DNA from: an uncultured Pseudomonadales bacterium | GTDB lineage: Bacteria; Patescibacteriota; Microgenomatia; UBA1400; Chazhemtobacteraceae | NCBI GenBank assembly: GCA_964618725.1 | Contig: CAZUBK010000001.1 | Location: 68,878 to 132,877, forward strand | Direction of reading: 5' to 3' | DNA: 64,000 nt | Part shown: positions 3,142-34,860 of the stretch, in pieces | Layout of the letters: each line of letters starts with the position of its first letter | Numbering within the stretch: position 1 is the first letter of the stretch | The notes under the pieces: model-generated | Told to the model about the DNA's origin: nothing | The model's database searches: none | Seen by the model: the letters and a program-made list of their open reading frames with translations, nothing else | Made by a program: the position numbers and the translations under genes

Positions 3142-3342
3142 ATGATGACCGGAACAGTCAAGACAAAAACTGACAGGGGCTTTGGGTTTATTTCAAGAGA
3201 AGGCGAAGACAAAGATCTTTTCTTTCATTCCAACGACTTGGTAGGAATCTCTTTTGAGGATCTACAAGTTGGCTCTCCTGTTACCTTTGAAATCGTAGTC
3301 GGTGAAAAAGGTCCAGCTGCTAAAAATATTAAGCTCGCTTAA
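3142..3342 (+). CDS. Cold-shock protein (CspA family)
   Basis: 66 aa. GTVKTKTDRGFGFISREGEDKDLFFH matches the cold-shock domain RNP1/RNP2 signatures. Confidence 0.8.
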   Translation: MMTGTVKTKTDRGFGFISREGEDKDLFFHSNDLVGISFEDLQVGSPVTFEIVVGEKGPAAKNIKLA

Positions 3343-3358
3343 GATATAGCTGACATAA

Positions 3359-3402
3359 ACTGACAACCCCAGGTCCTATAGTTGACCTGGGGTTGTTTTG
3401 GG
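3359..3402 (+). terminator. Rho-independent terminator
   Basis: acaaccccaggtc...gacctggggttgtttt. Confidence 0.7.
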
Positions 3403-3452
3403 TATAGAATGTATCGAGCTGAATTCCATATATTCTAGACAAGGAGAGTTAT

Positions 3453-3623
3453 ATGCTTGTTTATATGGGCACCGCGATCATCATCGTCAGCCTGATTGCC
3501 TTCATGATTGCCGCACTATTTAATGTCTTGGTTGGATTTTGGATCTTTATTCCTTTAGGGTTCGGCCTTATCATTCAAATGATTGGATATTGGCAAAACT
3601 GGCCACGCTATCCAAGGATATAG
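3453..3623 (+). CDS. Small (56 aa) two-helix membrane protein; absent from the ORF track (under 60 aa)
   Basis: Strong RBS aaggagag 5 nt before ATG 3453. Hydrophobic throughout (MLVYMGTAIIIVSLIAFMIAALFNVLVGFWIFIPLGFGLIIQMIGYWQNWPRYPRI). Followed by terminator hairpin gagtcccccggttggggggctc plus T-run. Confidence 0.4.
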   Translation: MLVYMGTAIIIVSLIAFMIAALFNVLVGFWIFIPLGFGLIIQMIGYWQNWPRYPRI

Positions 3624-3649
3624 TAGGCTTACGAGGCTTGTTTATGAGT

Positions 3650-3685
3650 CCCCCGGTTGGGGGGCTCTTTCTATATTATGGCTAG
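3650..3685 (+). terminator. Rho-independent terminator
   Basis: 9-bp GC stem gagtccccc/gggggGctc, loop ggtt, then tttctatatt. Confidence 0.55.
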
Positions 3686-3741
3686 TTTGGTAAAATTGAG
3701 GATGTATCCGAAGCTATAAGGTGTAGCAACCAACACGGTAT

Positions 3742-3813
3742 GGGTTCGTAGCTCAATGGTAGAGCAATTCCCTCTTAAGGAAGCGGTTGTGGGTTCGACT
3801 CCCACCGGACCCA
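3742..3813 (+). tRNA. tRNA-Lys (anticodon CTT)
   Basis: Acceptor gggttcg/cggaccc, anticodon loop ctcttaa, T-arm gtggg ttcgact cccac. Confidence 0.8.
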
Positions 3814-3878
3814 CATGTGTTTTGGAAGGGTGCAGGTTCGAGTCCTGCCGGATACGTAAGAGATATACTGAGGAAGTT

Positions 3879-3952
3879 GCACCCGTAGCTCAGCTGGATA
3901 GAGCATCTGACTTCGGATCAGAGGGTCGGGGGTTCAAATCCCTCCGGGTGCA
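3879..3952 (+). tRNA. tRNA-Arg (anticodon TCG)
   Basis: Acceptor gcacccg/cgggtgc, anticodon stem tctga/tcaga with loop cttcgga, T-arm ggttcaaatcc. Confidence 0.8.
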
Positions 3953-3976
3953 CAAGTGGTGTAGGATATATGAAGA

Positions 3977-4285
3977 ATGAAGAGTGACTTTTGTGAGTTG
4001 GCGAGAAGCGTTTACGAGCTAATAGATACAGAGCTAAAAGGAGTTGAGTCAGGAAAGTTGGATGTCATTGAGGCATATCCAAAATTAGTTGTCTCTTGTG
4101 AATTTCTTCGATATATTCGGGGAGAGTTTTTTAGTTTTTCACGACCGCCTCTTTTGGACTGCCAAAAAGAACTGTATCGACTGGAAGATGAAGTATCTGG
4201 ACGAGTTGAACAACTAAGAAAGAAGCTCGATTTGAGGGACCCTAGAACGAAGTATTTTTTTAGATCTGACGAAGAGGCTTTTTGA
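3977..4285 (+). CDS. Hypothetical protein (102 aa)
   Basis: ORF only; no motif recognised. Confidence 0.35.
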   Translation: MKSDFCELARSVYELIDTELKGVESGKLDVIEAYPKLVVSCEFLRYIRGEFFSFSRPPLLDCQKELYRLEDEVSGRVEQLRKKLDLRDPRTKYFFRSDEEAF

Positions 4286-4322
4286 CTGAATTCCCTTGTG
4301 GATAGGTCTATGATATTAATAG

Positions 4323-5510
4323 ATGAGTATGAAGAGGATAGAAGGGGATAATCATTTAGCAAATGTTTTGACCGAGTTAAGAAACCGGGCGGAAGTGTAC
4401 TTTCCTGGTGCTAGATTTGCCTCTGTATATTCCCCTACTGAGAAAGAGATGGTGCTTGTTCCTATTGCAGAGGCTTTGGTTTCACAGTTTGGACATGGAG
4501 TCGATTATGCTTCTGGGGTGTTTGAAGGAAGTAGCGCAATGATAAATGAGAGAACAGGTGTCCCCCATGTAATTTTGCTTGAACAACGAAATAGGAGGTT
4601 ATTTCACCGATCTCTGCCAGCAAGGGGATACGAGGCCCCTGTAAGCGAAGAGGCATTTGCATTGGCAACACTTAATCTTATTGTGGCGAACGGCCTAGAT
4701 CTTTTTAAAAATCCTAATGGAGAAGAAGGTTTTGTGAGGGCTTATATTAGGCCCACTATGTATCCGGCCACTTTGGCTGGATATGGAATCAGTATGCGAA
4801 AGGAATATCCCGTTGATGCTGGCATTATTGCCTGGGCGTGGCCAGATTACTTGGATCATACTTTGGCAACTCGCGGGGGTGTTTGCGCGATCACAGGACA
4901 CCAAAGACTCTTTAAGGTAACTGGTAAACACGCTAGTAACTACGGAGCTGCTGTGAAGGACGGTGGATTGGCGAGGTCACGTGAAGCGGACGAGCTGATT
5001 TATCTAGCACCATATTTAATAGACAAAGATGGACATCTGTATTGGGATGATCCAAACAACTTGGAGGCAAAATTAAGAGATGGTGTAATTTGCGATGGAC
5101 CCGGAGAGGAGTGTGTTGCACTGACGAAAGACCAGAAGACTTTGATTTATCCACCAATGACAACAAATAGATTGGGAGGAACGGTATTGCAATACATTAT
5201 TGATCATATGGCCAAGAATGTGGGACTCGAGACCAGAGAGGGTGAAATTACTTTGCATGATATAAGGACGGGAAAGTATGCAGGGTTGGCGATGGTTGGC
5301 AATGCGGTCAAAGTGACACCGATGAGGCAGATTAACTTGCAGAGTCCACTGGGATGGGAAGAAAAAATTCGTTTCTTTGCTGAAAATAACGTGCCGGAGA
5401 AACTCGATGAGTTGAGAGTTAGATGGGAAAACGAGACGAGAGGACTTGTCGATCCAAGTCATCCTAGTCTGTTGACTTCGGTCGAGGATTTCAATCTTGA
5501 TGTGGTTTGA
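4323..5510 (+). CDS. Fold-type IV PLP-dependent aminotransferase-like protein (BCAT/class IV-like)
   Basis: 395 aa. Runs of similarity to IlvE read by eye: GVFEG...ILLEQRNRRLFHRS (compare FEGIR...HREHMQRLHDSA), AYIRP, and KHASNYGAAVKDGGLARSREADELIYL (compare KAGGNYLSSLLVGSEARRHGYQEGIALD). Confidence 0.55.
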   Translation: MSMKRIEGDNHLANVLTELRNRAEVYFPGARFASVYSPTEKEMVLVPIAEALVSQFGHGVDYASGVFEGSSAMINERTGVPHVILLEQRNRRLFHRSLPARGYEAPVSEEAFALATLNLIVANGLDLFKNPNGEEGFVRAYIRPTMYPATLAGYGISMRKEYPVDAGIIAWAWPDYLDHTLATRGGVCAITGHQRLFKVTGKHASNYGAAVKDGGLARSREADELIYLAPYLIDKDGHLYWDDPNNLEAKLRDGVICDGPGEECVALTKDQKTLIYPPMTTNRLGGTVLQYIIDHMAKNVGLETREGEITLHDIRTGKYAGLAMVGNAVKVTPMRQINLQSPLGWEEKIRFFAENNVPEKLDELRVRWENETRGLVDPSHPSLLTSVEDFNLDVV

Positions 5511-20554: not shown

Positions 20555-23500
20555 ATGAAGATCCTATCGCCAGTCCAGACGGCCAAATTGCTTGGGGTTT
20601 CTATTGAAGATTTGCACCTATTGGAGGAGCAAGATTTGCTTCATTCCTCAAAGGATCACAAAGGAAGAATAATATACTCGCCTGAGGAAGTGGCCCAAAT
20701 AAAATCTAGGAAGGTACCCTCCATTTCTGAAGAAGCAGAGTTGGTTAATATCCAAGTTCAGAGGGAGACGGCGTATTCGGTTACAACAACGAAGAAGGTG
20801 CTTTTCTTTGTAGGTGGGGTGGTTTCCTCATACATCCTGTTGATCATTGTGTTTACGGTTCTATTCATTATCAATCCTCTACAAACGGCAGGTTGGCTTG
20901 GTTATGTTAGGGGTAATAGTCTTACCAGCAGCCTATCTCAAGCAGAAACACGAGATATGGTACTCGGGGCGAATACGGATGGAGCTATCTCAAGACCGAC
21001 TAGATTAATGCGAACTTTCTTACAACCGGCGTCGAGGGCGTCACTTGGTATCGTCAAGGCGGTTAGTCCTAATGCATATCAGGAGGTAGCCAAAATCACG
21101 ATTCTTGATCCTAATGATGTTTTTGCGGTGGAGAACGAAGTTATTTCACCTCAGATGACGCTTAGGATCTCGGATAACTCAAAGCTAGAGATAACCGATC
21201 CAGTGCAGATACCGAACCTTAACTCCGAGTATCTTCAAGGTCTACAACCGGGTAGTAATCCGGGTGATATTGCGATTGTGGGAGATACACCAAGCCTCAG
21301 TTTGGTACCGGTTACGAATGTCACTGCAACGGGACTAACTAATGCAAATCTTTCTGGCTCAGCTGGAATAACTAATGCTAACTTAGCCAACTCGTCTATT
21401 ACGATTAATACATCAAGTCCTCTCTCAGGTGGAGGGGCGGTAGCTCTTGGTAGTTCTCTTACTTTGACTTGTCCTACCTGCACGAACGGGTCGTCGCTAT
21501 TTACGGCGGACAGTACAGATACTCTGACCAACAAAACAATTGATGTAACTTTAAATACCATTACTGGCCTGACGGCAAGTAACTTAGCAGCCGGAGATTT
21601 CTCAAGCAAAATTACGAGCGGAACTTATTCTATCGATATTACCGGTAGTATTGCTTCGGCGGTCGACTTTACCGGGTCATTGGCTGGAGACGTCAGTGGA
21701 ACACAAAACCTAACGACTGTGACAAAGATTAACGGTACAACATTGGGGTCGACGACGGCTACTTCGGGTAACCTGCTAATAGGGAGTGGTAGCCAGTGGG
21801 TGACACAGACAGTGAGTAATGATGCCACGATTAACAGTTTGGGGGTGCTGACGCTAAAGAATGTTGGTACCTCAGGGACATACGGATCGGGGTCTTTAGT
21901 CCCTGTTTTTACAACTGACGCAAAAGGAAGGATATCGGGGGTCACAAATACAACCATCTCTGGCTTGAGTCCGACTAATTTTAGCTACGCCAATATTTCT
22001 CAGTGGACAAATGATGCAGGATATGTGACATCTCTTTCAGAAGCGGACACCCTGGCGACAGTGACCGGGCGCGGGGCAACGACGAGCAACGCACTCACAC
22101 TATCAAATGTGGCTAATGCGATTACCGCGGGGACATTGACGATTCAGGCTGAAAACTTCACTGATCTAACGGGAAGTGGCTTGTCTAATACGGCAGGGGT
22201 TTTGGGCGTGAATCTAACGACTTCGGGGACGACGGGGTCAACGACGAGCAATTCTGGTCTAGAAGTATCTACATCAGGACTAACCTTACTTAAGGGATGT
22301 ACTGACGAGGAAATTCTGAAGTACACTGATGCGGGTGGCTGGGCGTGTGCCGCTGATGTTAGTGGGGGTACTCCGGCTCTAAGCACTATTGGAGCGGCGG
22401 TTGGAGCCAACTTAATTAATAGTGGAGATAATGCTCAGATCTGGAATTGGGGTCTGACAACGGCAGCAAAAACGGCCTTTACTTTTGGAGAAAATACTGC
22501 AGCGATTAACGGCGCAGGTTCGCAATATATCCTTAGTTTATCGACTCTCTCGGGCTCGACTGCAGCTCCTTTGATTGTATCGGCCAGGGGGAATGCGATT
22601 ATCACCACCTCAGAGACTGGCGGTTTAACTTTTGGAAACACAACGGCCAATACAGCTATCACCTTACAATCTGGGACAGGAACGATCAATATCGGAACCG
22701 ATGCGAATGCCAAAATACTTACTTTGGGGAATAGTACTGGAGCAACGGCGGTAAATATCGATTCGGGGTCGGGCAATATCAACTTCACGGTTAACGGAAC
22801 GGGGTCCAGTGGGAAGGTTCAAATAGGTAATAGCAATACAATTACTCCTGACTTGTTAGTTTTGGATAACGGGACGGCTGACCCAGCAGGAGTCAATGGA
22901 GGGATGTACTACAACACCAGTACAAATAAGTTTCGTTGTTACCAAAATAGTGGCTGGTCTAACTGTATTACTCCCCCGGGCTCGGATCTTCAAACTACAG
23001 CTACCTACGGGACAAATGATAGTTTGGTGAATGTGGGTGTGACACAAGTGACAATTGCGGCTGTTTCTATCACTCCTGCTTCTGTGACTGGAGATATCTA
23101 CGTTCGAGGAAGAGTGGAGATCTTTAGTAGCAATAATACCGACCAAAGTTTAGTTTTGTCTATTGAAGACGATGCAACGTGTACCGGGAATACGGTTGAG
23201 ACCAATACAATTACAATTACGGCTTCGAATGGAACTCAAATAGGGAACTTTGAGCTTGCTGATGTTGTGGTTGACGCCGGTGCCTCTGCCCACTCGTATT
23301 CATTATGTGCCTCAACGGCTACGGGAGATAGCGATCTTCGACTTTATGAGATGTTTGCTACAGTGATTGATACAGGAGCAGACTTGGCAGAGATATACAC
23401 CACTGACGAGGAAAACATCGAGGTGGGAGATGTGGTTTCGCTTGAGAGTGGCTTGCAAGCGGGGATGAAGAAAAGTCAAACCGCCTATGATCAAAGTGTT

Positions 23501-24307
23501 TTGGGGATTGTTTCGACTAGACCTGGATTAATAATTGGCGATGTCGGCAAAGAAGGAGTGAGGGCTTTGCCAGTAGCCATGTCTGGTCGGGTTCCAGTAA
23601 AGGTATCGACGACGAACGGAAGAATTGATGCGGGTGATTATTTGACGACTTCTGAGATACCAGGGGTAGCAATGAAATCAACAAAGGGGGGAGCAATCAT
23701 CGGTATCGCAATGAATTCTTTCGACGGGGAGGGGATTGGTCGGATTTTGGCTTTTGCTAAGAATGGGTCGTCAACGGAAACTGTTGCCAACGTGGAAAAG
23801 ATTGCCACCAGCTCAGCTAGTCTGATTGAAGGCAATATTCTTAATCGGGTGATTCAAATCATTACTGACTTGTTTAAAAATTCAGTTGAGTTCTTGGGTA
23901 GTGTGGTCTTTCACAGTGATATTACTTTCTTAGGTAGACCAACATTTAACAAGGATACGGCGGGATATGCATTGATAAAGGCAGGAAGTCGTGAGGTTAA
24001 TATCAGTTTTGAAAAAGCATATACCAAGAAGCCGGTGATAACAGTCAGCCTTAGTCTGTCAGAAGGTGTCAAACTAGACGATCTACCGTTGTTTGCGGTG
24101 TATGAGAGTAGTTCGCAGGGCTTTAAGATTAGATTATCGAGAGCAACTATTTCGGATCTTCAGTTCTCCTGGATAGCTATCGAGGCGGCGGGAGAGGTGG
24201 TGTTGTCGACTGAGTCAAGTATGCTTATGGAGATGACAGGGAGTTTAGAGGAGGCAACGGATAGTGATGCAACAGTGGCCAGCCAGAGTGCCGAGATTGG
24301 GCTTTGA
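20555..24307 (+). CDS. Giant (1250 aa) membrane-anchored Thr/Ser/Gly/Asn-rich repetitive surface protein with N-terminal cytoplasmic HTH-like segment
   Basis: N-terminal TAKLLGVSIEDLHLLEEQDLL (MerR/excisionase-like HTH), one TM (VLFFVGGVVSSYILLIIVFTVLFII), then ~1100 aa of low-complexity T/S/G/N repeats (TGLTNANLSGSAGITNANL...) and a conserved C-terminal region (GIVSTRPGLIIGD...GDYLTTSEIPGVAMK). Confidence 0.6.
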   Translation: MKILSPVQTAKLLGVSIEDLHLLEEQDLLHSSKDHKGRIIYSPEEVAQIKSRKVPSISEEAELVNIQVQRETAYSVTTTKKVLFFVGGVVSSYILLIIVFTVLFIINPLQTAGWLGYVRGNSLTSSLSQAETRDMVLGANTDGAISRPTRLMRTFLQPASRASLGIVKAVSPNAYQEVAKITILDPNDVFAVENEVISPQMTLRISDNSKLEITDPVQIPNLNSEYLQGLQPGSNPGDIAIVGDTPSLSLVPVTNVTATGLTNANLSGSAGITNANLANSSITINTSSPLSGGGAVALGSSLTLTCPTCTNGSSLFTADSTDTLTNKTIDVTLNTITGLTASNLAAGDFSSKITSGTYSIDITGSIASAVDFTGSLAGDVSGTQNLTTVTKINGTTLGSTTATSGNLLIGSGSQWVTQTVSNDATINSLGVLTLKNVGTSGTYGSGSLVPVFTTDAKGRISGVTNTTISGLSPTNFSYANISQWTNDAGYVTSLSEADTLATVTGRGATTSNALTLSNVANAITAGTLTIQAENFTDLTGSGLSNTAGVLGVNLTTSGTTGSTTSNSGLEVSTSGLTLLKGCTDEEILKYTDAGGWACAADVSGGTPALSTIGAAVGANLINSGDNAQIWNWGLTTAAKTAFTFGENTAAINGAGSQYILSLSTLSGSTAAPLIVSARGNAIITTSETGGLTFGNTTANTAITLQSGTGTINIGTDANAKILTLGNSTGATAVNIDSGSGNINFTVNGTGSSGKVQIGNSNTITPDLLVLDNGTADPAGVNGGMYYNTSTNKFRCYQNSGWSNCITPPGSDLQTTATYGTNDSLVNVGVTQVTIAAVSITPASVTGDIYVRGRVEIFSSNNTDQSLVLSIEDDATCTGNTVETNTITITASNGTQIGNFELADVVVDAGASAHSYSLCASTATGDSDLRLYEMFATVIDTGADLAEIYTTDEENIEVGDVVSLESGLQAGMKKSQTAYDQSVLGIVSTRPGLIIGDVGKEGVRALPVAMSGRVPVKVSTTNGRIDAGDYLTTSEIPGVAMKSTKGGAIIGIAMNSFDGEGIGRILAFAKNGSSTETVANVEKIATSSASLIEGNILNRVIQIITDLFKNSVEFLGSVVFHSDITFLGRPTFNKDTAGYALIKAGSREVNISFEKAYTKKPVITVSLSLSEGVKLDDLPLFAVYESSSQGFKIRLSRATISDLQFSWIAIEAAGEVVLSTESSMLMEMTGSLEEATDSDATVASQSAEIGL

Positions 24308-25079: not shown

Positions 25080-26678
25080 TTATTTCTTTTGGAAGATGTA
25101 GACAGTGGGATGGTCATAGACCTGGAAAGTTTCTTCGGAAGAGTCATCGTTGATGACTAAATTGCCAAAGCGTGGGTATGAAGAAAAAGTTTTAACAAGT
25201 TTGTAGTTTAGTTTTCCAGCAAATAGTTCTGAATAGAAGACGGACATAAGAGGATATTTTTGTGGGTTATTAAGAATTGAGCCGTAAACACGACGGCTAC
25301 TGATGATGTAAAAGTCGCCTTGATCGAGCTGGTTGGTTAGTTCAGTGAACTTTTCTTTAGTATCTTGGTCATAGCTTTTGACTTCGAGGAAATTGAAATT
25401 ATTAACATAACCAGGAAGACTACTAGGAAGTTGGTCATCCCAGTGTTCGTGAAGAATGGTGCTTGTACCCGGAAGGTTTTGATAGATCCATTGAGAAGCA
25501 ACGATACGAGTGTGGGGGGAGGAGAAGACGGAGAAATAGGCAAGAGACCAAAGGAAGGAAATAGAAAGGGTGAGAAAGATGAGAAATCGACCGAGATAGC
25601 GTAAGCGGGCAGAGATCTTTAGAAGTAACCAAGAGGCAGAGAGAATAAGGGCGGGCAGAAGGGGAAGAAGGTAACGGATAAACTTGGTATGCCATTGGCC
25701 GATATATGCAAAGTAGGCGAGGGAGAAAAGCAGCAGGGGTAGAGAGTGAATCTTCTTGTATTTGAGGTCATGAATAAGCCAGAAGATGATACCGAGTAGT
25801 CCAAAGATGGCGACAGGGGGGCCGACTTGCCAAGGAAGATTCTTAAGAAAATAGAGATAGGGTGGAGTGACAGTAAACTGAAGATTGTAGGGGACACTAA
25901 GTTCACCGATAACAACGCCTTTTTCATAAGCCATTGATTCAAGGAATTTATTTGAGCTTAGAAAAGAGTATGGACTGACGACAAAGAAGGTGAGAAAAGT
26001 GAGGAGTGCAAAATATACACCAACAAAAATAGAGTGGAAGAAGTTTCTTTGAGAAGTGGTAGTCAACCAAGTGAAGAGGGGAAGGACTAGAAACGAGACG
26101 GCCGAGGTCTTGGTACCTATGGCCAGACCACAGATGAGGGCGAGCTTGGCAAAGGAGAGAGTGGATGATTTTTTGAGTGTTTGGATACAGAGACTACTAA
26201 TAATGAGTAACCAGAAAACAAGGAGACTTTCGGTCACTCCATAATGGGCATATTGGATGAAGCCAGGAGAGGCTGTAGCCAGAGCGGCAGCCAGGAGCCC
26301 AAGAGAGGGACCAACAAGCAGATTGCCGAGAAGAAAGAAAAGGGGAATGGAAGCGGTAGAGAAGGAGGCAGAGAGAAAGCGACCAAGGAGATTGATATGA
26401 CCCCAATCAGTTAGCCAAGAAGAGTTATTGGTTAGTGAAGCAGTAATTTCAGCAACGAGCCGAAGAAGATAGATGAAGAAACCGTTATAGGCATGGAAGC
26501 CAGGGTCAAGACTCCAGGGGAACTCGAGTTGAGTGACGGCAGCGGCAATGTTTCGCTCATCGGGGTGGTAACTTAAGCTTTGATCCCAGTTGAGACTACT
26601 AAAGCGTAGAAAGCCAGCGAAAATGATTAAAATAAGAAGGAAAGACTTGATAGGGAAGAACTTAGATTTAGGGGTCAC
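25080..26678 (-). CDS. GT-C fold glycosyltransferase-like integral membrane protein (family 39/83-like)
   Basis: 532 aa, more than 10 TM helices, early loop motif SYHPDER typical of ArnT/PMT-like GT-C enzymes, C-terminal soluble domain. Confidence 0.45.
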   Translation of the reverse strand: MTPKSKFFPIKSFLLILIIFAGFLRFSSLNWDQSLSYHPDERNIAAAVTQLEFPWSLDPGFHAYNGFFIYLLRLVAEITASLTNNSSWLTDWGHINLLGRFLSASFSTASIPLFFLLGNLLVGPSLGLLAAALATASPGFIQYAHYGVTESLLVFWLLIISSLCIQTLKKSSTLSFAKLALICGLAIGTKTSAVSFLVLPLFTWLTTTSQRNFFHSIFVGVYFALLTFLTFFVVSPYSFLSSNKFLESMAYEKGVVIGELSVPYNLQFTVTPPYLYFLKNLPWQVGPPVAIFGLLGIIFWLIHDLKYKKIHSLPLLLFSLAYFAYIGQWHTKFIRYLLPLLPALILSASWLLLKISARLRYLGRFLIFLTLSISFLWSLAYFSVFSSPHTRIVASQWIYQNLPGTSTILHEHWDDQLPSSLPGYVNNFNFLEVKSYDQDTKEKFTELTNQLDQGDFYIISSRRVYGSILNNPQKYPLMSVFYSELFAGKLNYKLVKTFSSYPRFGNLVINDDSSEETFQVYDHPTVYIFQKK

Positions 26679-26687
26679 AAAGATATT

Positions 26688-27809
26688 CTATACAATGGGC
26701 CCTTGCGTTTCGCCGTCTTCTAGCTCAAGTAAATCAATACCTTTGATCTCTGGGAAGCTTTGACCAACGATTCCCTTGATCTCGCCGACCATTCCGGCAG
26801 TATTACTGATAAGGCGTTGGACTTGGGCCTCACGGCTTTTCCAGATTTTTTCGAAGGCGACGCGTTCCTTGACGATCTGAAGGTGCATCTCCTGATAGAC
26901 TTCGGCGATTGCTTCAACTTGGTGACGGAACTGAGGACTGGCGATGAAGGAGTAGAGAGTATCGGCTTTTTCGCCTCGATTTTGGGCAATGAAACGTTCC
27001 TTGGCGGTGTCGATGAGAGTTTTGCGAAGAAGCTCTGCAACCGGCACAACTAGATCGGGTTGGCAGACCCAGATGCCATCATGAGGTCCCGTCTTGGTGG
27101 TCAGCTCTTTGGGTAAGATGACGCTGACGATGACGGCGAGATCGGCTTTTTCGCCTCTTAAATCTTCTTTTAACTTGGTTGACCAATCGGACTGCCAGGC
27201 TTTAGTACGCTTGCTTTCCCAGAGAATGGTGCCACAGACATTGCCGCGTGGTGTTTTGACGATTTGACGAAGATCAGCGCCTTTAACACCTTTGCCAACG
27301 GGGCTGATGGTGTCACTGGGGAAGCTACTTATGAGAGTTTCTTCCAGATCGAGTTCTAGGACCTCACCTTGGAGCTGCTGGGAACCCTGTTCGAGCTTTC
27401 GTTTGAGCTCTTCATTAACTCTAAGAATGTCGCTGAATCGCTTTTCGTTCTCTAGATCTTTGAAACGATGTTCTTCTTTGGCGCGCTTGATAGCCTCATC
27501 TTCAATAAGGCGGGATTTCTCATCGATGGCCCGAGAAAGCCTAAGATCAAACTCCTTTTGAGCCTGCTCTAGTTCTTGGCGCTTTTTCCGGAGTTGTATT
27601 TCGTTTTTTTGAGATTCAGTTAGCTTTTCTTCTGTTTTCTTGAGTTGTTCCAGGAGTAGGTTTAGTTCGCCTTCATTTTGTTTCTTGAGCGAGTCTTTGA
27701 TTTCTTGCTCTAGCTTGACGAATTCTTTCTCGCGAATCTGGTGGCTTATTATCTCGTCAACAGAGACCGGTTTACCACAGTGGGGACAATTGACTTGATT
27801 TGTAGACAT
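26688..27809 (-). CDS. DUF2130-like protein: N-terminal C4 zinc ribbon, long coiled coil, C-terminal PD-(D/E)xK-like nuclease motif
   Basis: Start taken at MSTNQVNCPHCGKPV (1 nt after the upstream gene's stop). KEK-rich heptad region. C-terminal GADLRQIV...GTILWESKRTK matches the D...ExK pattern. Confidence 0.5.
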   Translation of the reverse strand: MSTNQVNCPHCGKPVSVDEIISHQIREKEFVKLEQEIKDSLKKQNEGELNLLLEQLKKTEEKLTESQKNEIQLRKKRQELEQAQKEFDLRLSRAIDEKSRLIEDEAIKRAKEEHRFKDLENEKRFSDILRVNEELKRKLEQGSQQLQGEVLELDLEETLISSFPSDTISPVGKGVKGADLRQIVKTPRGNVCGTILWESKRTKAWQSDWSTKLKEDLRGEKADLAVIVSVILPKELTTKTGPHDGIWVCQPDLVVPVAELLRKTLIDTAKERFIAQNRGEKADTLYSFIASPQFRHQVEAIAEVYQEMHLQIVKERVAFEKIWKSREAQVQRLISNTAGMVGEIKGIVGQSFPEIKGIDLLELEDGETQGPIV

Positions 27810-27810
27810 A

Positions 27811-28680
27811 TTAGAGAAGCTGGCTCTCTTTGCTGTTGACATCTTTGTTGACGACGTAGAGATCGTTGTTGTATCCACTAACTCCAACATATTCTCCCCG
27901 ACCTTCGAGGACAGCTTCCAGTGGGCGGCAATGGTGACATCCTTGAGTGGGACACCTAAAACGCTCTAGTTGTCGGGCGAGTTTGATTTCTTTAGCGATC
28001 TTGAGTATCTTCTGCTGCGCTTCTTCTAGATTGGGAAGAGTTTTTTGTGTAAGCGAGTCGCTTAGACCAAGGTACCAGTAACTGGCTTCGGTAGCGGGAC
28101 GGTTTTGGGTATTATTAACGAGGAGATGGTAGATGGGAAGCTGTAAAGAGCTCGGATCCTCTTCTGTTTTACTGGTCTTGAAGTCGATAATGTGAACTGA
28201 ATCAGTATCGGGAAGGTATTCGAGCCAGTCGATCTTGCCACAGAGGATAATATTGTCATCATCAGAGAGCCAATAGTAGGGTAGATCCATATTGATCTTA
28301 ACGGCGAGACGAGTTAGGGGGCCGGGGTTTTTCTCAATGTTACGAAGCATTTGAATACCTCTTTCTTTGTATTTGTGTTCGGTGTTATTGTCAAAGAAAC
28401 CACCTTTTTTCCCGGTATATTTTTGCCAGACGTATTCAAACTTATCGACCAGAGGAGCTAGAAAGCGTTGATGTGTAGGGAGCACGGAGAGAGATTCGAC
28501 AACTTCATGGACGGCGGCGCCGAGGGAAAGAGGGGGAGTTATTACTTGGATCTTATGTTTGGTCTTGGGGTCCTTGTAGACGTTTTTGAGATAGTAGGCA
28601 CGAGGACAGGCAAGGAAATCGCTCAAGGAAGAGTGGGAGACCCAAACGGCGGAGAATTTATCTTTAGGCATAGGGCTCAT
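27811..28680 (-). CDS. Cas4/RecB-like PD-(D/E)xK nuclease with Fe-S cluster cysteines
   Basis: SHSSLSDFLACPRAYYLK (N-terminal Cys), IIDFKTSK (D-x-K), C-terminal CPTQGCHHCRP (three Cys). Architecture resembles PDDEXK_1/Cas4-family nucleases. Confidence 0.55.
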   Translation of the reverse strand: MSPMPKDKFSAVWVSHSSLSDFLACPRAYYLKNVYKDPKTKHKIQVITPPLSLGAAVHEVVESLSVLPTHQRFLAPLVDKFEYVWQKYTGKKGGFFDNNTEHKYKERGIQMLRNIEKNPGPLTRLAVKINMDLPYYWLSDDDNIILCGKIDWLEYLPDTDSVHIIDFKTSKTEEDPSSLQLPIYHLLVNNTQNRPATEASYWYLGLSDSLTQKTLPNLEEAQQKILKIAKEIKLARQLERFRCPTQGCHHCRPLEAVLEGRGEYVGVSGYNNDLYVVNKDVNSKESQLL

Positions 28681-28733
28681 TTTAACACTTAGAGGGTTTG
28701 ACAGAAAAACATCTCAACAGGTAAGCTTGGCGC

Positions 28734-29030
28734 ATGGCAGCAAAGTTTAAGGAAGCCGTTAAAGAAATGATGGCAATGCATCAGGCTGAGTTTGAAGAAT
28801 TCAAGAGAATTCACGAGTTGTTTACGGGAGACAAGAAGAAATGGTCAGCGGAATACAATAGGACTGGGAAACCGATCGTTGATTATGTTCTGGCAGCAGA
28901 AAAGCGACTTTGTTCTAAATCAGAGAGTAGCGGATACGGGGCTTATTCAACCAAGCTGTCAGAGAAATTTCGCGAAGAGGTAAAAACACATTTTCCCTTG
29001 ATAGATTTTGTTGGGGTAACTTTTTCCTAG
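28734..29030 (+). CDS. Hypothetical protein (98 aa)
   Basis: ORF between the nuclease and hydrolase genes; no motif recognised. Confidence 0.3.
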   Translation: MAAKFKEAVKEMMAMHQAEFEEFKRIHELFTGDKKKWSAEYNRTGKPIVDYVLAAEKRLCSKSESSGYGAYSTKLSEKFREEVKTHFPLIDFVGVTFS

Positions 29031-29731
29031 ATGGTTAATAGGTGAGAGTTCTGCTTAAGCCACTTTACATGATCCTTGTAATCAGGATCAAGTGATTTAA
29101 CAAGATTCCAGAAGGTTTTACGGTGGTGACGATGAATGAGATGACAGACCTCGTGGATGACGACATAGTCGACGATTTTGTGAGGGGCCTGGATTAGTTT
29201 GCGATTAAAGTTAAGATTATTTCTTCTCGAGCAACTACCCCAGATAGAGGAGACGCGTTTGAGAGTGATTCGTTGGTAACTTACATTTAGGAGTTGGCAA
29301 AAATGGTTAACTTTTTGAGTAATCACTTTTTTGCCTTGTTTGAGATACCACTTGGTGAAGAGATGTCTGAGTTCGAGACTCGTTTTGCCTAAAGAGAAGC
29401 TACTGGGAACGAGGGCCTCGAAAGAGTTGTACAAAAGAGAAAGTTTAGCCTTTTTATTAGTCAGCGAACGGGTAATCTTAAGCGGGAAGGACTCGCCAAA
29501 GTAGAGGTGGATTTCTCCATCGCAATATTTTTTCTTCGGGGAAGTCACTTGTTCTAGTTTGGCGAGTTGAGTAAGTACCCAGTCTTTTTTTTGATACAGA
29601 AAGGCCTCGATTTGAGAGAGCGGAACAAAATGCGGGGCACGAACAAGCACACCATGTTCAGATGAAATCTGAATGCTGGTGGTAAAGTTCCTATTCTTAC
29701 TTTTTTTGATGGTGTATTTAAACGGTAACAT
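29027..29731 (-). CDS. DUF45/YgjP-like HExxH metal-dependent hydrolase
   Basis: C-terminal VVIHEVCHLIHRHHRKTFW (HExxH plus extra His). Start placed at the Met overlapping the helicase stop by ~14 nt; the track ORF extends to 29809. Confidence 0.55.
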   Translation of the reverse strand: MLPFKYTIKKSKNRNFTTSIQISSEHGVLVRAPHFVPLSQIEAFLYQKKDWVLTQLAKLEQVTSPKKKYCDGEIHLYFGESFPLKITRSLTNKKAKLSLLYNSFEALVPSSFSLGKTSLELRHLFTKWYLKQGKKVITQKVNHFCQLLNVSYQRITLKRVSSIWGSCSRRNNLNFNRKLIQAPHKIVDYVVIHEVCHLIHRHHRKTFWNLVKSLDPDYKDHVKWLKQNSHLLTI

Positions 29732-31016
29732 TGTATTGACGAATTTGATCCATGAACTGAAGAATAACGGGGTCGAGCATGATATCACGGGGATTGACCG
29801 GACGAGCAAGAGACAAGCCAGATAGGGAACGGCAGCGACTCAGAGCAACATAAGCCTGGCCGTGTGCAAAGGCACCTCGACCCAGATCAACGTGGGCACA
29901 ATCAAAGGACTTGCCCTGGGCTTTGTGGATAGTGACGGCCCAGGCGAGACGAAGGGGAAGCTGGGTAAAGCTGCCTATTTCTTCTTGTTTGAGAGAGTTG
30001 GTCTGGTGGTCAAAGATTGTTTGCAACTGATTCCAGGTAAAAGGCTTGACTTCAACCTGTGCACCATCATCGATCTTGACCTTGACGGTGGAGGCAGAGG
30101 TTTTGGTGACAGTCCCGAGCGTCCCGTTGATCCAAAGGCCACCTGGCTCGTTGTTAAGAAGCATCACCCGGGCGCCTTGTTTGAGGATGAGTTTCTCTGC
30201 GGTGGGAAATTGAGTAGTAGAGAAATGGCCACTACTAAAGCCTCGGTACTCAAAAGATTTGGTAGTGAGTTTATTTAGCTCAATATTATTTATCTGATCG
30301 GCTTGCCAGTTGGTGGCGGTGAGGACAAGACCGCTGTCTCTTTGGCGGACGCGTTGGTTGAGAAAAGTAAGATCACCAGGAGTGGCAGTTTTGTTTCTGA
30401 TTTTGTTGAGAAGAGAAATGAATTCCGGCTCATTTTGGCGATAGATTTGGTCGAGTTCGATGAAGGCAAAGTCGGGAAGTAGATTGTGGAGTAGGTTCTC
30501 GAAGGAGACGGCAGAGAAAAAGTAGGGAGATTGATATGCCATGGTGAGGATTTCTTTTTCTTCCTCAGTGACGATGGGGGGGAGCTGAAAGAGGTCGCCG
30601 ATCATGACGAGTTGGACACCGCCAAATGGAGCTTGACTTTGGCGGACAGCGCGAAGGAAGGCGTCGATGGTATCGAGAAGATCGGCCCGGACCATAGAGA
30701 TTTCGTCGATAATGAGGGTGGTAAGAGCTTTAAAGACTTCTTTCTTACGCGACTTGCCGGCGAGGCGCTTGGCATCGGTAGGCGAGACACCGGGGCGAAA
30801 ACCAAAGAAAGAATGAATGGTCTCGCCGTTGACATTGACGGCGGCAACACCAGTGGGGGCAACCACAGCGAGGGGCTTACTGGTAATACTTCGAAAGTAA
30901 CTGAGAAGGGTTGATTTGCCGGTACCGGCCTCGCCGGTGATGAAGATGTGTTTGTTGGTTTTCTCAAGGAGGTCGAGAGCTTTTTGAAAGTTTGGGTTAA
31001 TGTCGATTTGTTGCAC
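29718..31016 (-). CDS. Pif1/RecD-like SF1 DNA helicase
   Basis: Walker A GEAGTGKSTLL, Walker B LIIDEISMV, and C-terminal VTIHKAQGKSFD motif characteristic of Pif1/RecD/Dda helicases. Confidence 0.7.
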   Translation of the reverse strand: MQQIDINPNFQKALDLLEKTNKHIFITGEAGTGKSTLLSYFRSITSKPLAVVAPTGVAAVNVNGETIHSFFGFRPGVSPTDAKRLAGKSRKKEVFKALTTLIIDEISMVRADLLDTIDAFLRAVRQSQAPFGGVQLVMIGDLFQLPPIVTEEEKEILTMAYQSPYFFSAVSFENLLHNLLPDFAFIELDQIYRQNEPEFISLLNKIRNKTATPGDLTFLNQRVRQRDSGLVLTATNWQADQINNIELNKLTTKSFEYRGFSSGHFSTTQFPTAEKLILKQGARVMLLNNEPGGLWINGTLGTVTKTSASTVKVKIDDGAQVEVKPFTWNQLQTIFDHQTNSLKQEEIGSFTQLPLRLAWAVTIHKAQGKSFDCAHVDLGRGAFAHGQAYVALSRCRSLSGLSLARPVNPRDIMLDPVILQFMDQIRQYNVTV

Positions 31017-32554: not shown

Positions 32555-32851
32555 ATGAAGAAGTTGCCTGCTCCTCTAGCCTTTGACTGGGATAATGGAA
32601 ATATTGACAAGAACTTGAGAAAACACGGCGTTCACCATAAGGAGGCTGAGGAAGTCTTTTTTAATAAACCAATCAAAGTATTTAAGGATATTAAACATTC
32701 TGGTGGTGAAAATAGATTTATAGCATTGGGGGTAACTAATAAAATAAAGTATTTATGTGCTGCTTTTACGATCAGAAAGAAGAAAGTAAAAATAATATCA
32801 ATTAGATCTCAAAGCAAAAGAGAAAGGAGAATATATGAACAAACTAACTAA
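32555..32851 (+). CDS. brnT: BrnT-family toxin (type II TA ribonuclease toxin)
   Basis: LAFDWDNGNIDKNLRKHGVHHKEAEEVFFNKP...HSGGENRFIALGVT...KIISIRSQSKRERRIYE follows the BrnT pattern (F.WD..K...N..KHGV.F.EA..VF). Confidence 0.7.
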   Translation: MKKLPAPLAFDWDNGNIDKNLRKHGVHHKEAEEVFFNKPIKVFKDIKHSGGENRFIALGVTNKIKYLCAAFTIRKKKVKIISIRSQSKRERRIYEQTN

Positions 32852-33125
32852 GCCAATACCAAAGTTTAAAAACGAAGACCAAGAGAGAGAGTTCTGGGCA
32901 AAGAATGATTTTGCTGATTATATGAATCAATTTGAAAAAGTTGACTTGGATTTATCTAAACTCAAACCTTCAACTGAGTCTATTTCTCTAAGACTACCCT
33001 CATATCTATTATTCAGAATCAAGGAGATAGCCAATTCCAGAGATGTACCGTATCAATCCTTGATGAAAATGTTTTTAGCAGAAAGAGTAGAAAACGAACT
33101 GAGTAGATTGAATAGGCAATCTTGA
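32835..33125 (+). CDS. brnA: BrnA-family antitoxin
   Basis: Overlaps brnT by 17 nt. FKNEDQEREFWAKNDFADY...ISLRLPSYLLFRIKEIANSRDVPYQSLMKMFLAERV matches the BrnA RHH-like pattern. Confidence 0.7.
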   Translation: MNKLTKPIPKFKNEDQEREFWAKNDFADYMNQFEKVDLDLSKLKPSTESISLRLPSYLLFRIKEIANSRDVPYQSLMKMFLAERVENELSRLNRQS

Positions 33126-33192: not shown

Positions 33193-33321
33193 AGGGAGCG
33201 GGTGACCGTAATTGGCTCGAACCACTTTGGCCTGGGCGACTATATCACACCAGATCTTATTTTACAGTTCCAATCTCTTAAAGAACGAATGGGCATTAAG
33301 TCCTTCACTGGTTTTCAGTAA
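33193..33321. repeat. Repeat R copy A: degenerate copy of the tRNA-Gly 3' end plus shared ~80-nt segment (att-like)
   Basis: gagcgggtgaccgtaattggctcgaacc aligns to the plus-strand tRNA-Gly sequence gagcgggataggggaattgaacc. On the minus strand it forms a T-arm-like GTGGTTCGAGCC plus acceptor-like segment. The remainder aligns to copy B. Confidence 0.55.
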
Positions 33322-34157
33322 CTTCGTCTTCGTTCTTGAATTTCTTTTAATGCGACATCCAGCTGAGATGTAATAAGTGCAACAACGCCTTCTTTAGTAA
33401 AGCGCATATAGCGTCCGTCTTTAGCTGAATAATAGAATCCTAGTTTGAAAGCTTCTGCTAAATTAAACGTATACATAAAGCTATTATAAAAACTTTCAAA
33501 ATTTCCTCTGAATCTTGCCTCTTCAGCTTGTTTAAACAGTTTCCAATATTCGGAAGTAGAGAGTTCTTTTCCCAATTTACTTCCATACCTTCGTAGGTTC
33601 ATAAATTCACTATTGTTATCAACATATCCTTTGTCATACGTTGCCCATTTATCTAAGATATTTGGAGTCTCGTTAGATTTTAAAATTAAATAGTTAAAAT
33701 TTGGTGCGGCAACAAGCATCCCTGTCGGTACAAAATGATCGATTCCTTCGCCCCATCCAGACATAAAAGTAGTCATGTCTGCATCGTGACCCGAAAAACA
33801 GAAATTTTCAGGGTGCGTATGTACATCAAATGTCGGTACAAACTTGTCTCTTTTTTTGGAAACTGCCCACCCACACGCATCTTCACCAACATCAGGATTG
33901 GTCGGGAAAATAATCTTTTTATTTCCAATTTCAACATGAAGAACTGCTCCTCTTTCTCGGTGAGCAACATCTATCTTTGTCAAATCAGATAACCAATTGA
34001 CATAAGATTCTATTCTTATAGCATGGAAAGTATCCCTTAAATACAATGGACTAGGAAGTCTTCCCTCAGCTGAATTGATAATATAGGCTTCAAGCTCGCC
34101 GTTTTTGGGATTCAATATTTCGGGTGGAAAAGGTACGGCTCTATTGATTTCACCCAT
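33315..34157 (-). CDS. JAB/MPN (JAMM)-like metallohydrolase-domain protein
   Basis: 280 aa. HVE...HTHPENFCFSGHDAD gives E...HxH-x6-S-x2-D, one residue shorter than the canonical JAMM spacing. C-terminal helical region. Confidence 0.35.
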   Translation of the reverse strand: MGEINRAVPFPPEILNPKNGELEAYIINSAEGRLPSPLYLRDTFHAIRIESYVNWLSDLTKIDVAHRERGAVLHVEIGNKKIIFPTNPDVGEDACGWAVSKKRDKFVPTFDVHTHPENFCFSGHDADMTTFMSGWGEGIDHFVPTGMLVAAPNFNYLILKSNETPNILDKWATYDKGYVDNNSEFMNLRRYGSKLGKELSTSEYWKLFKQAEEARFRGNFESFYNSFMYTFNLAEAFKLGFYYSAKDGRYMRFTKEGVVALITSQLDVALKEIQERRRSY

Positions 34158-34741: not shown

Positions 34742-34789
34742 TTAATTGTAATTTTCGAGTAACTTTCTGTACATTTCTGTCACTTTATG

Positions 34790-34860
34790 AGCGGGATAGG
34801 GGAATTGAACCCCTCACCACACCTTGGGAAGGTGTTGTTATACCGATTAACTAATCCCGC
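34790..34860 (-). tRNA. tRNA-Gly (anticodon CCC)
   Basis: Minus-strand cloverleaf: acceptor gcgggat/atcccgc, anticodon stem acacc/ggtgt with loop ttcccaa, T-arm agggg ttcaatt cccct. Confidence 0.8.

Follow-up and report, generated by a model that had tools for sequence, protein, structure and literature searches.

The window (i.e., the whole 64-kb stretch of DNA analyzed here) carries, at positions 26688 to 31016, genes for a Pif1-family helicase, a YgjP-like/DUF45 zinc hydrolase, a Cas4-like nuclease, and a DUF2130 protein. A preliminary description had regarded these four genes as a nuclease/helicase island, either an anti-phage defense system or a reduced recombination/repair module. We consider it fairly probable that the region is vertically inherited chromosomal backbone of a Collierbacteria-like bacterium (Microgenomates, candidate phyla radiation), in which stand-alone genome-maintenance enzymes were compacted by gene loss, and that no dedicated four-gene system is present. 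All four proteins belong to described families, and their clustering is a lineage-specific compaction; the four enzymes probably serve genome maintenance separately, in an organism with a minimal repair toolkit. The case shows that tight packing in such genomes can mimic operon-based "guilt by association."

The open reading frame (ORF) listing and a reading of the minus strand placed five genes in this interval. Four are on the minus strand: the superfamily 1B (SF1B) helicase (29718 to 31016; 432 amino acids [aa]; GTG start), the DUF45 HExxH hydrolase (29027 to 29731; 234 aa), the Cas4/AddB-type PD-(D/E)xK nuclease (27811 to 28680; 286 to 289 aa, with a probable start at M4, position 28671), and the DUF2130 protein (26688 to 27809; 373 aa). 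The positions and family assignments given for these genes in the preliminary description were borne out by Pfam searches, i.e., PIF1 (115.6 bits; cutoff, 25.9; E = 3e-33), YgjP-like (PF01863; 187.3 bits over profile positions 3 to 207 of 207; E = 4e-55), PDDEXK_1 (79.4 bits; cutoff, 22; E = 5e-22), and DUF2130 (PF09903; 193.8 bits; cutoff, 26.7; E = 4e-57).

Both tight junctions described earlier were also seen in the sequence. The DUF45 ATG, at 29731, lies 14 nucleotides (nt) inside the helicase gene, whose TAA occupies 29720 to 29718, and the TAA of the Cas4-like gene (27813 to 27811) is followed by a single T and then by the DUF2130 ATG at 27809 (i.e., a 1-nt spacer). The TAG of DUF2130 (26690 to 26688) is followed, after a 9-nt spacer, by the GTG of a gene for a polytopic membrane protein (25080 to 26678, minus strand; 532 aa), which is probably cotranscribed with DUF2130. 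Because this neighbor, 9 nt away, is unrelated to DNA metabolism, tight packing here does not imply a common function. The division into two adjacent minus-strand operons was accurate as to the genes and overlooked a conserved plus-strand gene between them (orf98; 28734 to 29030; 98 aa). A promoter and terminator scan over 24.7 to 31.4 kb yielded counts not above those of shuffled sequences and was uninformative on operon boundaries.

The gene neighborhoods of relatives carry the main conclusion. The 80 closest DUF2130 loci, with up to 10 kb of flanking sequence, and 13 further loci from relatives were compared; genes were called and searched with the window proteins, and all neighbors were clustered (L-numbers designate loci, and c-numbers designate neighbor clusters). 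Relatives of DUF2130 number in the thousands and are found mostly in Microgenomates such as Woese-, Collier-, Gottesman-, and Levybacteria. Among the 80 loci, an orthologue of the Cas4-like gene was near DUF2130 in 30, Pif1 in 20, DUF45 in 20, and all three in 15, while approximately 43 had none of the three within 10 kb. No neighbor family accompanied DUF2130 everywhere. All four genes occurred together in the Collierbacteria-like lineage only (approximately 15 to 30 loci), where they lie within ~8 kb in 15 loci. The comparison with related genomes proposed earlier thus showed homologues that are largely scattered, with unrelated genes interposed where the four do co-occur.

All of these co-occurrences belong to a single conserved block typical of Collierbacteria (~30 of the 80 loci). 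It starts with a guanylate-kinase-like gene (minus strand), c13, DUF45, Pif1, in some loci an MFS gene (minus strand), DUF192, PAP2, and the Cas4-like gene. It continues with CAP (minus strand), c3, in some loci c20 (minus strand), DUF2130, in some loci a pyruvate kinase gene (minus strand), a second PDDEXK_1 gene, and QueA. The second PDDEXK_1 gene (c1; L038, 11922 to 12689, plus strand, and 30 other loci) encodes a Cas4-like paralogue of ~255 aa downstream of DUF2130. The gap between the Cas4-like gene and DUF2130 was 1.3 to 2.8 kb in 27 loci and as short as 17 nt in L065 only. In the clustering, which included the window's own contig, PAP2 was retained in position in 25 loci, CAP in 28, and c3 in 31, compared with 21 for Pif1 and 20 for DUF45. 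A dedicated four-gene unit is disfavored because the unrelated genes are at least as constant in position as Pif1 and DUF45.

The window keeps the wider Collierbacteria order and has lost intervening genes. Its flanking genes have housekeeping and envelope functions and stand in the same order as in Collierbacteria; the upstream GT2, Wzy_C, and Glucodextran_B genes are shared with L088. DUF45 is neighbored by Pif1, orf98, and a guanylate-kinase-like gene, and neither c1 nor the small c3 gene is present in the 64-kb window.

The closest relatives were found through DUF45 (60 to 70% identity), and they differ in which of the four genes they keep. L096 and L097 have the order Pif1, DUF45, orf98 (minus strand), DUF5671 (minus strand), and Cas4-like, followed by an inverted DUF2130 with abutting stop codons. 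Their Pif1, Cas4-like, and membrane proteins are 59 to 73% identical to those of the window, while their DUF2130 (3297 to 4421, minus strand, in L096; the same coordinates in L097) shares 35% identity with the window copy and no more than 44% with any sampled DUF2130, which could reflect in situ replacement or fast evolution. L100 probably has the arrangement of the window and shows the same 1-nt junction; as only a 29-aa fragment lies upstream of DUF45, Pif1 is putative there. L082 has kept DUF45, an orf98 counterpart (orf97; minus strand), and the Cas4-like gene, and both Pif1 and DUF2130 are absent at that locus. L086 has CAP and a flavin reductase gene between DUF45 and the Cas4-like gene; upstream of DUF45 lies a gene whose 421-aa product is not a helicase. 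L084, L085, L098, and L099 have DUF45 alone beside a signal peptidase gene. In five Collierbacteria-like loci, Pif1 has been lost and DUF45 and the Cas4-like gene have been kept.

DUF2130 has other company in other lineages. Eleven Woesebacteria loci share the order DUF4012, RecO, DUF2130, an aminoacyl-tRNA synthetase gene, MraZ, and MraW. RecO and DUF2130 share a strand, with RecO upstream (mostly immediately), in L002 (5604 to 6149), L004 to L008, L018, L042, L048, L060, and L069. A 247-aa Woesebacteria protein encoded near DUF2130 (c18) was considered as a divergent nuclease and rejected, as hhalign comparisons with both PDDEXK_1 paralogues were negative; it looks membrane anchored or secreted. 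In Gottesmanbacteria, DUF2130 follows rpoB-rpoC-S12-S7; the Cas4-like gene lies at a distance of 9.6 kb in L063 and directly upstream in L065. Many of the labels of the metagenome-assembled records among L002 to L081 (i.e., Pseudomonadales, Gammaproteobacteria, Alphaproteobacteria, Spirochaetia, Clostridia, and Bathyarchaeia) look wrong, since these loci show Collierbacteria- or Woesebacteria-type synteny and DUF2130 at 41 to 51% identity.

Several observations weigh against reading the cluster as compacted backbone. A PDDEXK_1 paralogue lies within 10 kb of DUF2130 in 37 of the 80 loci, which is above the expectation from pure synteny. Direct adjacency to DUF2130 (15 to 71 nt) occurs in 10 of them, nine with c1, often in the order c3, DUF2130, c1, and one (L065) with the Cas4-like gene; to these can be added the 1-nt junctions of the window and L100. 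L065 reached its adjacency in a different genomic context, and in L096 the divergent DUF2130 occupies the same site. The counts are also phylogenetically nonindependent, with ~30 of the 80 sampled loci coming from one lineage. Finally, conjugative plasmids, prophages, and restriction-modification loci also carry homologues of DUF2130 and DUF45, so that a conflict-related role is possible.

The PDDEXK_1 adjacencies, L065, and L096 together could reflect a real partnership between the Cas4-like and DUF2130 proteins. An alternative account would accordingly recognize two genuine modules, i.e., Pif1 with DUF45 and the Cas4-like nuclease with DUF2130 (e.g., an Fe-S exonuclease processing the ends left by a stalk-mounted endonuclease). 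In its favor are the tight junctions of the window, the coupling of Pif1 and DUF45 in both orders together with an HsdR-DUF45 overlap described below, the fact that DUF2130 directly adjoins a PDDEXK_1 paralogue in at least two contexts, and the retention in situ, beside the Cas4-like gene of L096, of a DUF2130 that has diverged. Against the second module, unrelated opposite-strand genes (CAP and c20) separate the Cas4-like gene from DUF2130 in 27 loci, the two genes are convergent in L096 and hence not cotranscribed, L082 has the Cas4-like gene without DUF2130, a PDDEXK_1 partner is missing within 10 kb of DUF2130 in approximately 43 of the 80 loci, and DUF2130 has no such neighbor in the three plasmid and prophage loci inspected. 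We regard the two-module account as unlikely, though it deserves more credit than any other alternative considered here.

The Pif1-DUF45 pair is the only pairing of the four that looks like a real functional one. DUF45 precedes Pif1 in 15 Collierbacteria-like loci, with a gap of 0 to 8 nt in 12 cases; apparent overlaps of 65 to 77 nt in the remaining loci (L020, L038, and L070) may result from crude start-codon calls. The order is reversed, and the genes still overlap, in the window and L096 and probably in L100. This survival of tight coupling through a change of gene order is what argues for a functional pair. Several genomes have DUF45 without an adjacent Pif1, which speaks against obligatory coupling.

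The helicase is a Pif1 protein proper. It aligned over its full length with solved bacterial Pif1 structures (E = 1e-128 to 1e-80), and Pif1 chains in the PDB matched its residues 2 to 427 at 1e-128 to 1e-43. Its translation contains the Walker A motif GEAGTGKST and, between helicase motifs II and III, the Pif1 signature stretch DLLDTIDAFLRAVRQSQAPFGGVQ. Of the earlier label "Pif1/RecD-type," the first half was therefore upheld by Pfam and structures, whereas a RecD or RecD2 identity was rejected, with NCBIfam scores far under the cutoffs (TIGR01448, 72.7 versus 500; TIGR01447, 45.7 versus 310). The protein resembles bacterial Pif1 helicases (Bacteroides 5FHD, Thermus oshimai 6S3E, and the 8BNS/8BNV chains) in its length of ~430 aa, Walker A motif, and signature motif and differs from them in that its gene is translationally coupled to a YgjP/DUF45 gene. 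In a review of prokaryotic Pif1, the words nuclease, metal, fused, and fusion are absent, and operon and neighbor are used in unrelated senses only. In L052, Pif1 lies between YecM and a HAD hydrolase gene.

For DUF45, the HExxH residues H193, E194, and H197 were invariant in 61 homologues, and the AlphaFold2 model had a predicted local distance difference test (pLDDT) score of 93. In Foldseek searches, the C-terminal catalytic domain of the model superposed on the minimal gluzincins abylysin, jannalysin, and selecase (E = 4e-4 to 8e-4). These matches were better than those to Wss1 (E of ~1e-2; template modeling score on the target, 0.53 to 0.59) and SPRTN (E = 0.2 to 0.35), and the protein scored under the Pfam thresholds for SprT-like (23.1 versus 25.6) and WLM (19.7 versus 26). 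DUF45, Wss1/SPRTN (WLM/SprT), and the minimal gluzincins belong to the same zincin clan, CL0126 (10.1101/570200). Unlike all of these, DUF45 has an N-terminal beta-rich half without a counterpart, and it lacks the DNA-binding and ubiquitin/SUMO modules of Wss1/SPRTN. Judging from the modeled fold, a peptidase is the most likely activity. The literature on DUF2130 and YgjP/DUF45 (COG1451, PF01863) yielded catalogue mentions only. In the closest matches from cultured organisms (H33 and H34), whose records are without annotation, a tblastn search with the window proteins found DUF45 alone.

A second DNA motor is coupled to DUF45 elsewhere. Distant DUF45 homologues carried by Klebsiella and Roseicitreum plasmids have a 4-nt overlap with the stop of a type I HsdR gene (L094, 2612 to 6648; L095, 2714 to 6642), in agreement with the earlier statement that such genes occur inside restriction-modification loci. 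These homologues, annotated as "SprT family zinc-dependent metalloprotease," are ~25% identical to the window DUF45, and a Shedu nuclease gene is present in the same locus in L095. As in the window, a protein of the same Pfam family with an HExxH motif is encoded directly after, and overlapping, the gene for a DNA motor; the window partner is the SF1B Pif1 and not the SF2 HsdR translocase, and no HsdR, HsdM, or HsdS gene adjoins the window DUF45. We raise the tentative idea, which we think unlikely, that YgjP/DUF45 gluzincins are dedicated partners of DNA motors (HsdR and, in Collierbacteria-like bacteria, Pif1), possibly as Wss1/SPRTN-like proteases clearing away the stalled motor or DNA-trapped proteins ahead of it. 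If so, the Pif1-DUF45 operon would be a minimal bacterial module for helicase-coupled clearing of DNA-protein cross-links or roadblocks. The recurrent, order-independent coupling of DUF45 to Pif1, mirroring HsdR-DUF45, offers a testable lead to the function of this family.

The assignment of the Cas4-like protein to the Cas4/RecB-like PD-(D/E)xK nucleases with Fe-S cysteines was supported by PDDEXK_1 and by conservation among 31 orthologues. Cysteines C25, C243, C248, and C251 are kept in 97 to 100% of them, and D151, D166-x-K168, and Q180...Y184 are conserved; the four cysteines form a set of the putative 4Fe-4S type. The protein also matched a PHROG "exonuclease" family (5e-14) and had no match in a PDB sequence search. 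Its subfamily is small, with 413 representative clusters at E ≤ 1e-3 among 1.84 billion. A CRISPR-associated Cas4 was rejected, on the basis of scores under the cutoffs (TIGR00372, 32 versus 65; Cas_Cas4, 17.6 versus 22.7) and the lack of CRISPR-like direct repeats in the 64-kb window. The nuclease shares with Cas4, AddB, and Dna2 the one N-terminal and three C-terminal cysteines and the GxID, (D)xK, and QxxxY motifs. It differs in not being fused to a helicase and in its cysteine spacing, which is Cx4Cx2C, as against Cx2Cx5C in Cas4 and AddB.

The DUF2130 protein was examined with a 67-sequence alignment and an AlphaFold2 model (mean pLDDT, 82). Residues C8, P9, C11, E149, D179 (GAD), and E198/K200 (WESK) are invariant. 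The model begins with a small beta-hairpin carrying CPxC, followed by one helix of ~120 residues (~17 to 139), a central alpha/beta core (145 to 249), and two long C-terminal helices. The core has the alpha-beta-beta-beta-alpha-beta arrangement of the PD-(D/E)xK fold, in which the first helix carries E149, strand 3 carries E198/K200, and D179 immediately precedes strand 2, and the model supports the nuclease fold that the preliminary description had proposed to check by structure prediction. DUF2130 had previously been listed among the PD-(D/E)xK families that lack an assigned function (PMC3424549). Three details of the earlier account need revision. The nuclease motif is real but central rather than C-terminal, as helices follow it; the coiled coil put at ~200 aa is a long helix spanning ~17 to 139 in the model; and a zinc ribbon at CPHCG was rejected, since only the C8-P9-x-C11 knuckle is conserved and no second Cys/His pair exists in the 67 sequences. 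As a secondary possibility, this single N-terminal CxxC, located where the ~120-residue stalk has its tip, may join molecules through a zinc hook of the Rad50 style.

RmuC (PF02646) has the same general plan, i.e., a long coiled-coil or helical region and a PD-(D/E)xK core, and both families are listed in the PD-(D/E)xK superfamily (PMC3424549). The likeness is one of architecture only; DUF2130 has the N-terminal CPxC knuckle and two extra C-terminal helices, and no homology was detected (probability of 0.3% in an hhalign comparison of the 67-sequence profile with a single E. coli RmuC, which had low power, and no Pfam RmuC hit at E ≤ 0.01). A PDB sequence search with DUF2130 returned spurious coiled-coil matches only (E > 0.5). 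DUF2130 is a widespread family with a model-supported, stalk-mounted PD-(D/E)xK nuclease, encoded beside RecO or Cas4-type nucleases in tiny-genome bacteria, and its context points to candidate parts of the poorly understood recombination/repair toolkit of these organisms.

The family assignments also bear on whether the four genes form a single reduced recombination/repair module standing in for AddAB or RecBCD. All four proteins are DNA related, and their genes lie within 4.3 kb in the window and within ~8 kb in the 15 Collierbacteria-like loci; moreover, Dna2 and AddB have a domain content like that of a 5'-3' SF1B helicase combined with an Fe-S nuclease of the Cas4 type. An AddAB, RecBCD, or AdnAB machine itself was rejected, as the window encodes a 432-aa SF1B Pif1 without a nuclease domain and a 289-aa nuclease in another transcription unit and the recD model scored under its cutoff. 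A four-gene module also fits poorly with the plus-strand gene that splits the cluster in the window, with the unrelated genes on both strands that stand between the four in the same Collierbacteria-like loci, with the partial sets of L082, L084, and L086 and of the five loci that lack Pif1, and with the solitary occurrence of DUF2130 and Pif1 outside this lineage. We judge such a module improbable. That suggestion nevertheless comes closer than a defense system does, and what survives of it is a group of individual genome-maintenance genes that includes one pair, Pif1-DUF45, and no four-gene unit.

The proposal of a new anti-phage or anti-plasmid defense system that combines a helicase and two nucleases with a zinc hydrolase found the least support, and we regard it as very improbable. 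Its architecture is loosely like that of helicase-nuclease defense systems, DUF45 homologues occur in type I restriction-modification loci (one by Shedu), a toxin-antitoxin pair lies 1.5 kb away, and DUF2130 is carried by mobile elements. The last include rhizobial conjugative plasmids, where it is next to ParA and a relaxase gene or right after a RelE/helix-turn-helix pair, and Helicobacter heilmannii prophages, where it is by a ParA fragment. None of the three partner genes was nearby in the three plasmid and prophage loci inspected (L091, 5623 to 6918; L092, 5998 to 7266; L093, 5614 to 6927). The hidden Markov model check suggested earlier, run with Pfam and PADLOC on the four proteins, confirmed the Pfam families and revealed no protein specific to a named defense system (Hachiman, Gabija, Nhi, Lamassu, and others). 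PADLOC returned generic Cas4 and helicase-domain matches (candidate PDC-S68, up to 1e-22) and weak matches to GajB (14 bits) and LmuB (18 bits; coiled coil), with none for DUF45 or orf98. No CRISPR-like direct repeats were detected in the window, and no restriction-modification or cas genes were noted beside the cluster, cas genes not having been searched for across the whole window. The G+C content over 26.7 to 31 kb (0.44 to 0.47) is like that of the flanks, with no compositional anomaly, and the nearby low-G+C patch starts at ~32 kb. The housekeeping synteny is conserved lineage-wide, and the gene set is neither mobile as a unit nor found together outside one lineage.

Under the preferred reading of compacted backbone, we infer all mechanistic steps from family membership. 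Pif1 would translocate 5' to 3' on single-stranded DNA and clear structures, flaps, or bound proteins at replication forks, and the DUF45 zinc enzyme may act with or on this motor, as its homologues presumably do with HsdR. The Cas4-like Fe-S enzyme would trim flaps or single-stranded 5' ends; paired with a 5'-3' helicase, it would resemble an activity like that of Dna2 or AddB divided between separate proteins. DUF2130 may be an endonuclease that forms oligomers, is mounted on a helical stalk, and acts in recombination or on branched DNA, a role that fits with its RecO neighbor in Woesebacteria and its RmuC-like architecture. Local gene loss would have pushed these stand-alone enzymes together, and the 1-nt Cas4-like/DUF2130 junction and the 9-nt link to the membrane protein gene would reflect genome compaction rather than obligatory coupling.

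The gene between the two minus-strand groups, orf98, encodes a small lineage-specific protein. It was also called as a gene on a Logan contig, and it is 56% identical to the gene of the same position and orientation in L082. Only seven database proteins are homologous (46 to 100% identity; relatives, 46 to 77%), and no family match was obtained in Pfam, PADLOC, NCBIfam, or PHROG. In L082, L096, L097, and L100, it lies antisense, directly after DUF45 and before the Cas4-like gene. One distant copy was found 3 kb from DUF2130 in L074.

The membrane protein encoded after DUF2130 had been described as a GT-C protein 10 nt downstream. A membrane protein gene does come next, with a spacer of 9 nt, and the assignment as a possible GT-C/PMT-like glycosyltransferase rests on a PMT_2 match under the Pfam cutoff (21.5 versus 26.1 bits). 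Its orthologues (52 to 61% identity) are in the same neighborhood of L082 and L096.

The toxin-antitoxin pair near the cluster consists of a BrnT toxin and a BrnA/CopG-type antitoxin (32555 to 33125, plus strand; Pfam, 5e-22 and 1.5e-26). It lies within a patch at 32 to 35 kb that has a G+C content of 0.37 and near-zero GC skew, ends at a tRNA-Gly gene (34789 to 34860), and also contains a 280-aa ORF (33315 to 34157, minus strand) with no Pfam match. The patch looks like a small recent insertion separate from the cluster. Outside it, GC skew is positive over almost the whole window (0.07 to 0.39) whatever the gene strand, which suggests that the window lies on a single replichore. Farther from the cluster, a 1,250-aa ORF (20555 to 24307, plus strand) opens with a short segment resembling a helix-turn-helix; a hydrophobic stretch comes next and then a long region rich in Thr, Ser, and Gly, and a homologue of ~1,200 aa is encoded in the same neighborhood of L082.

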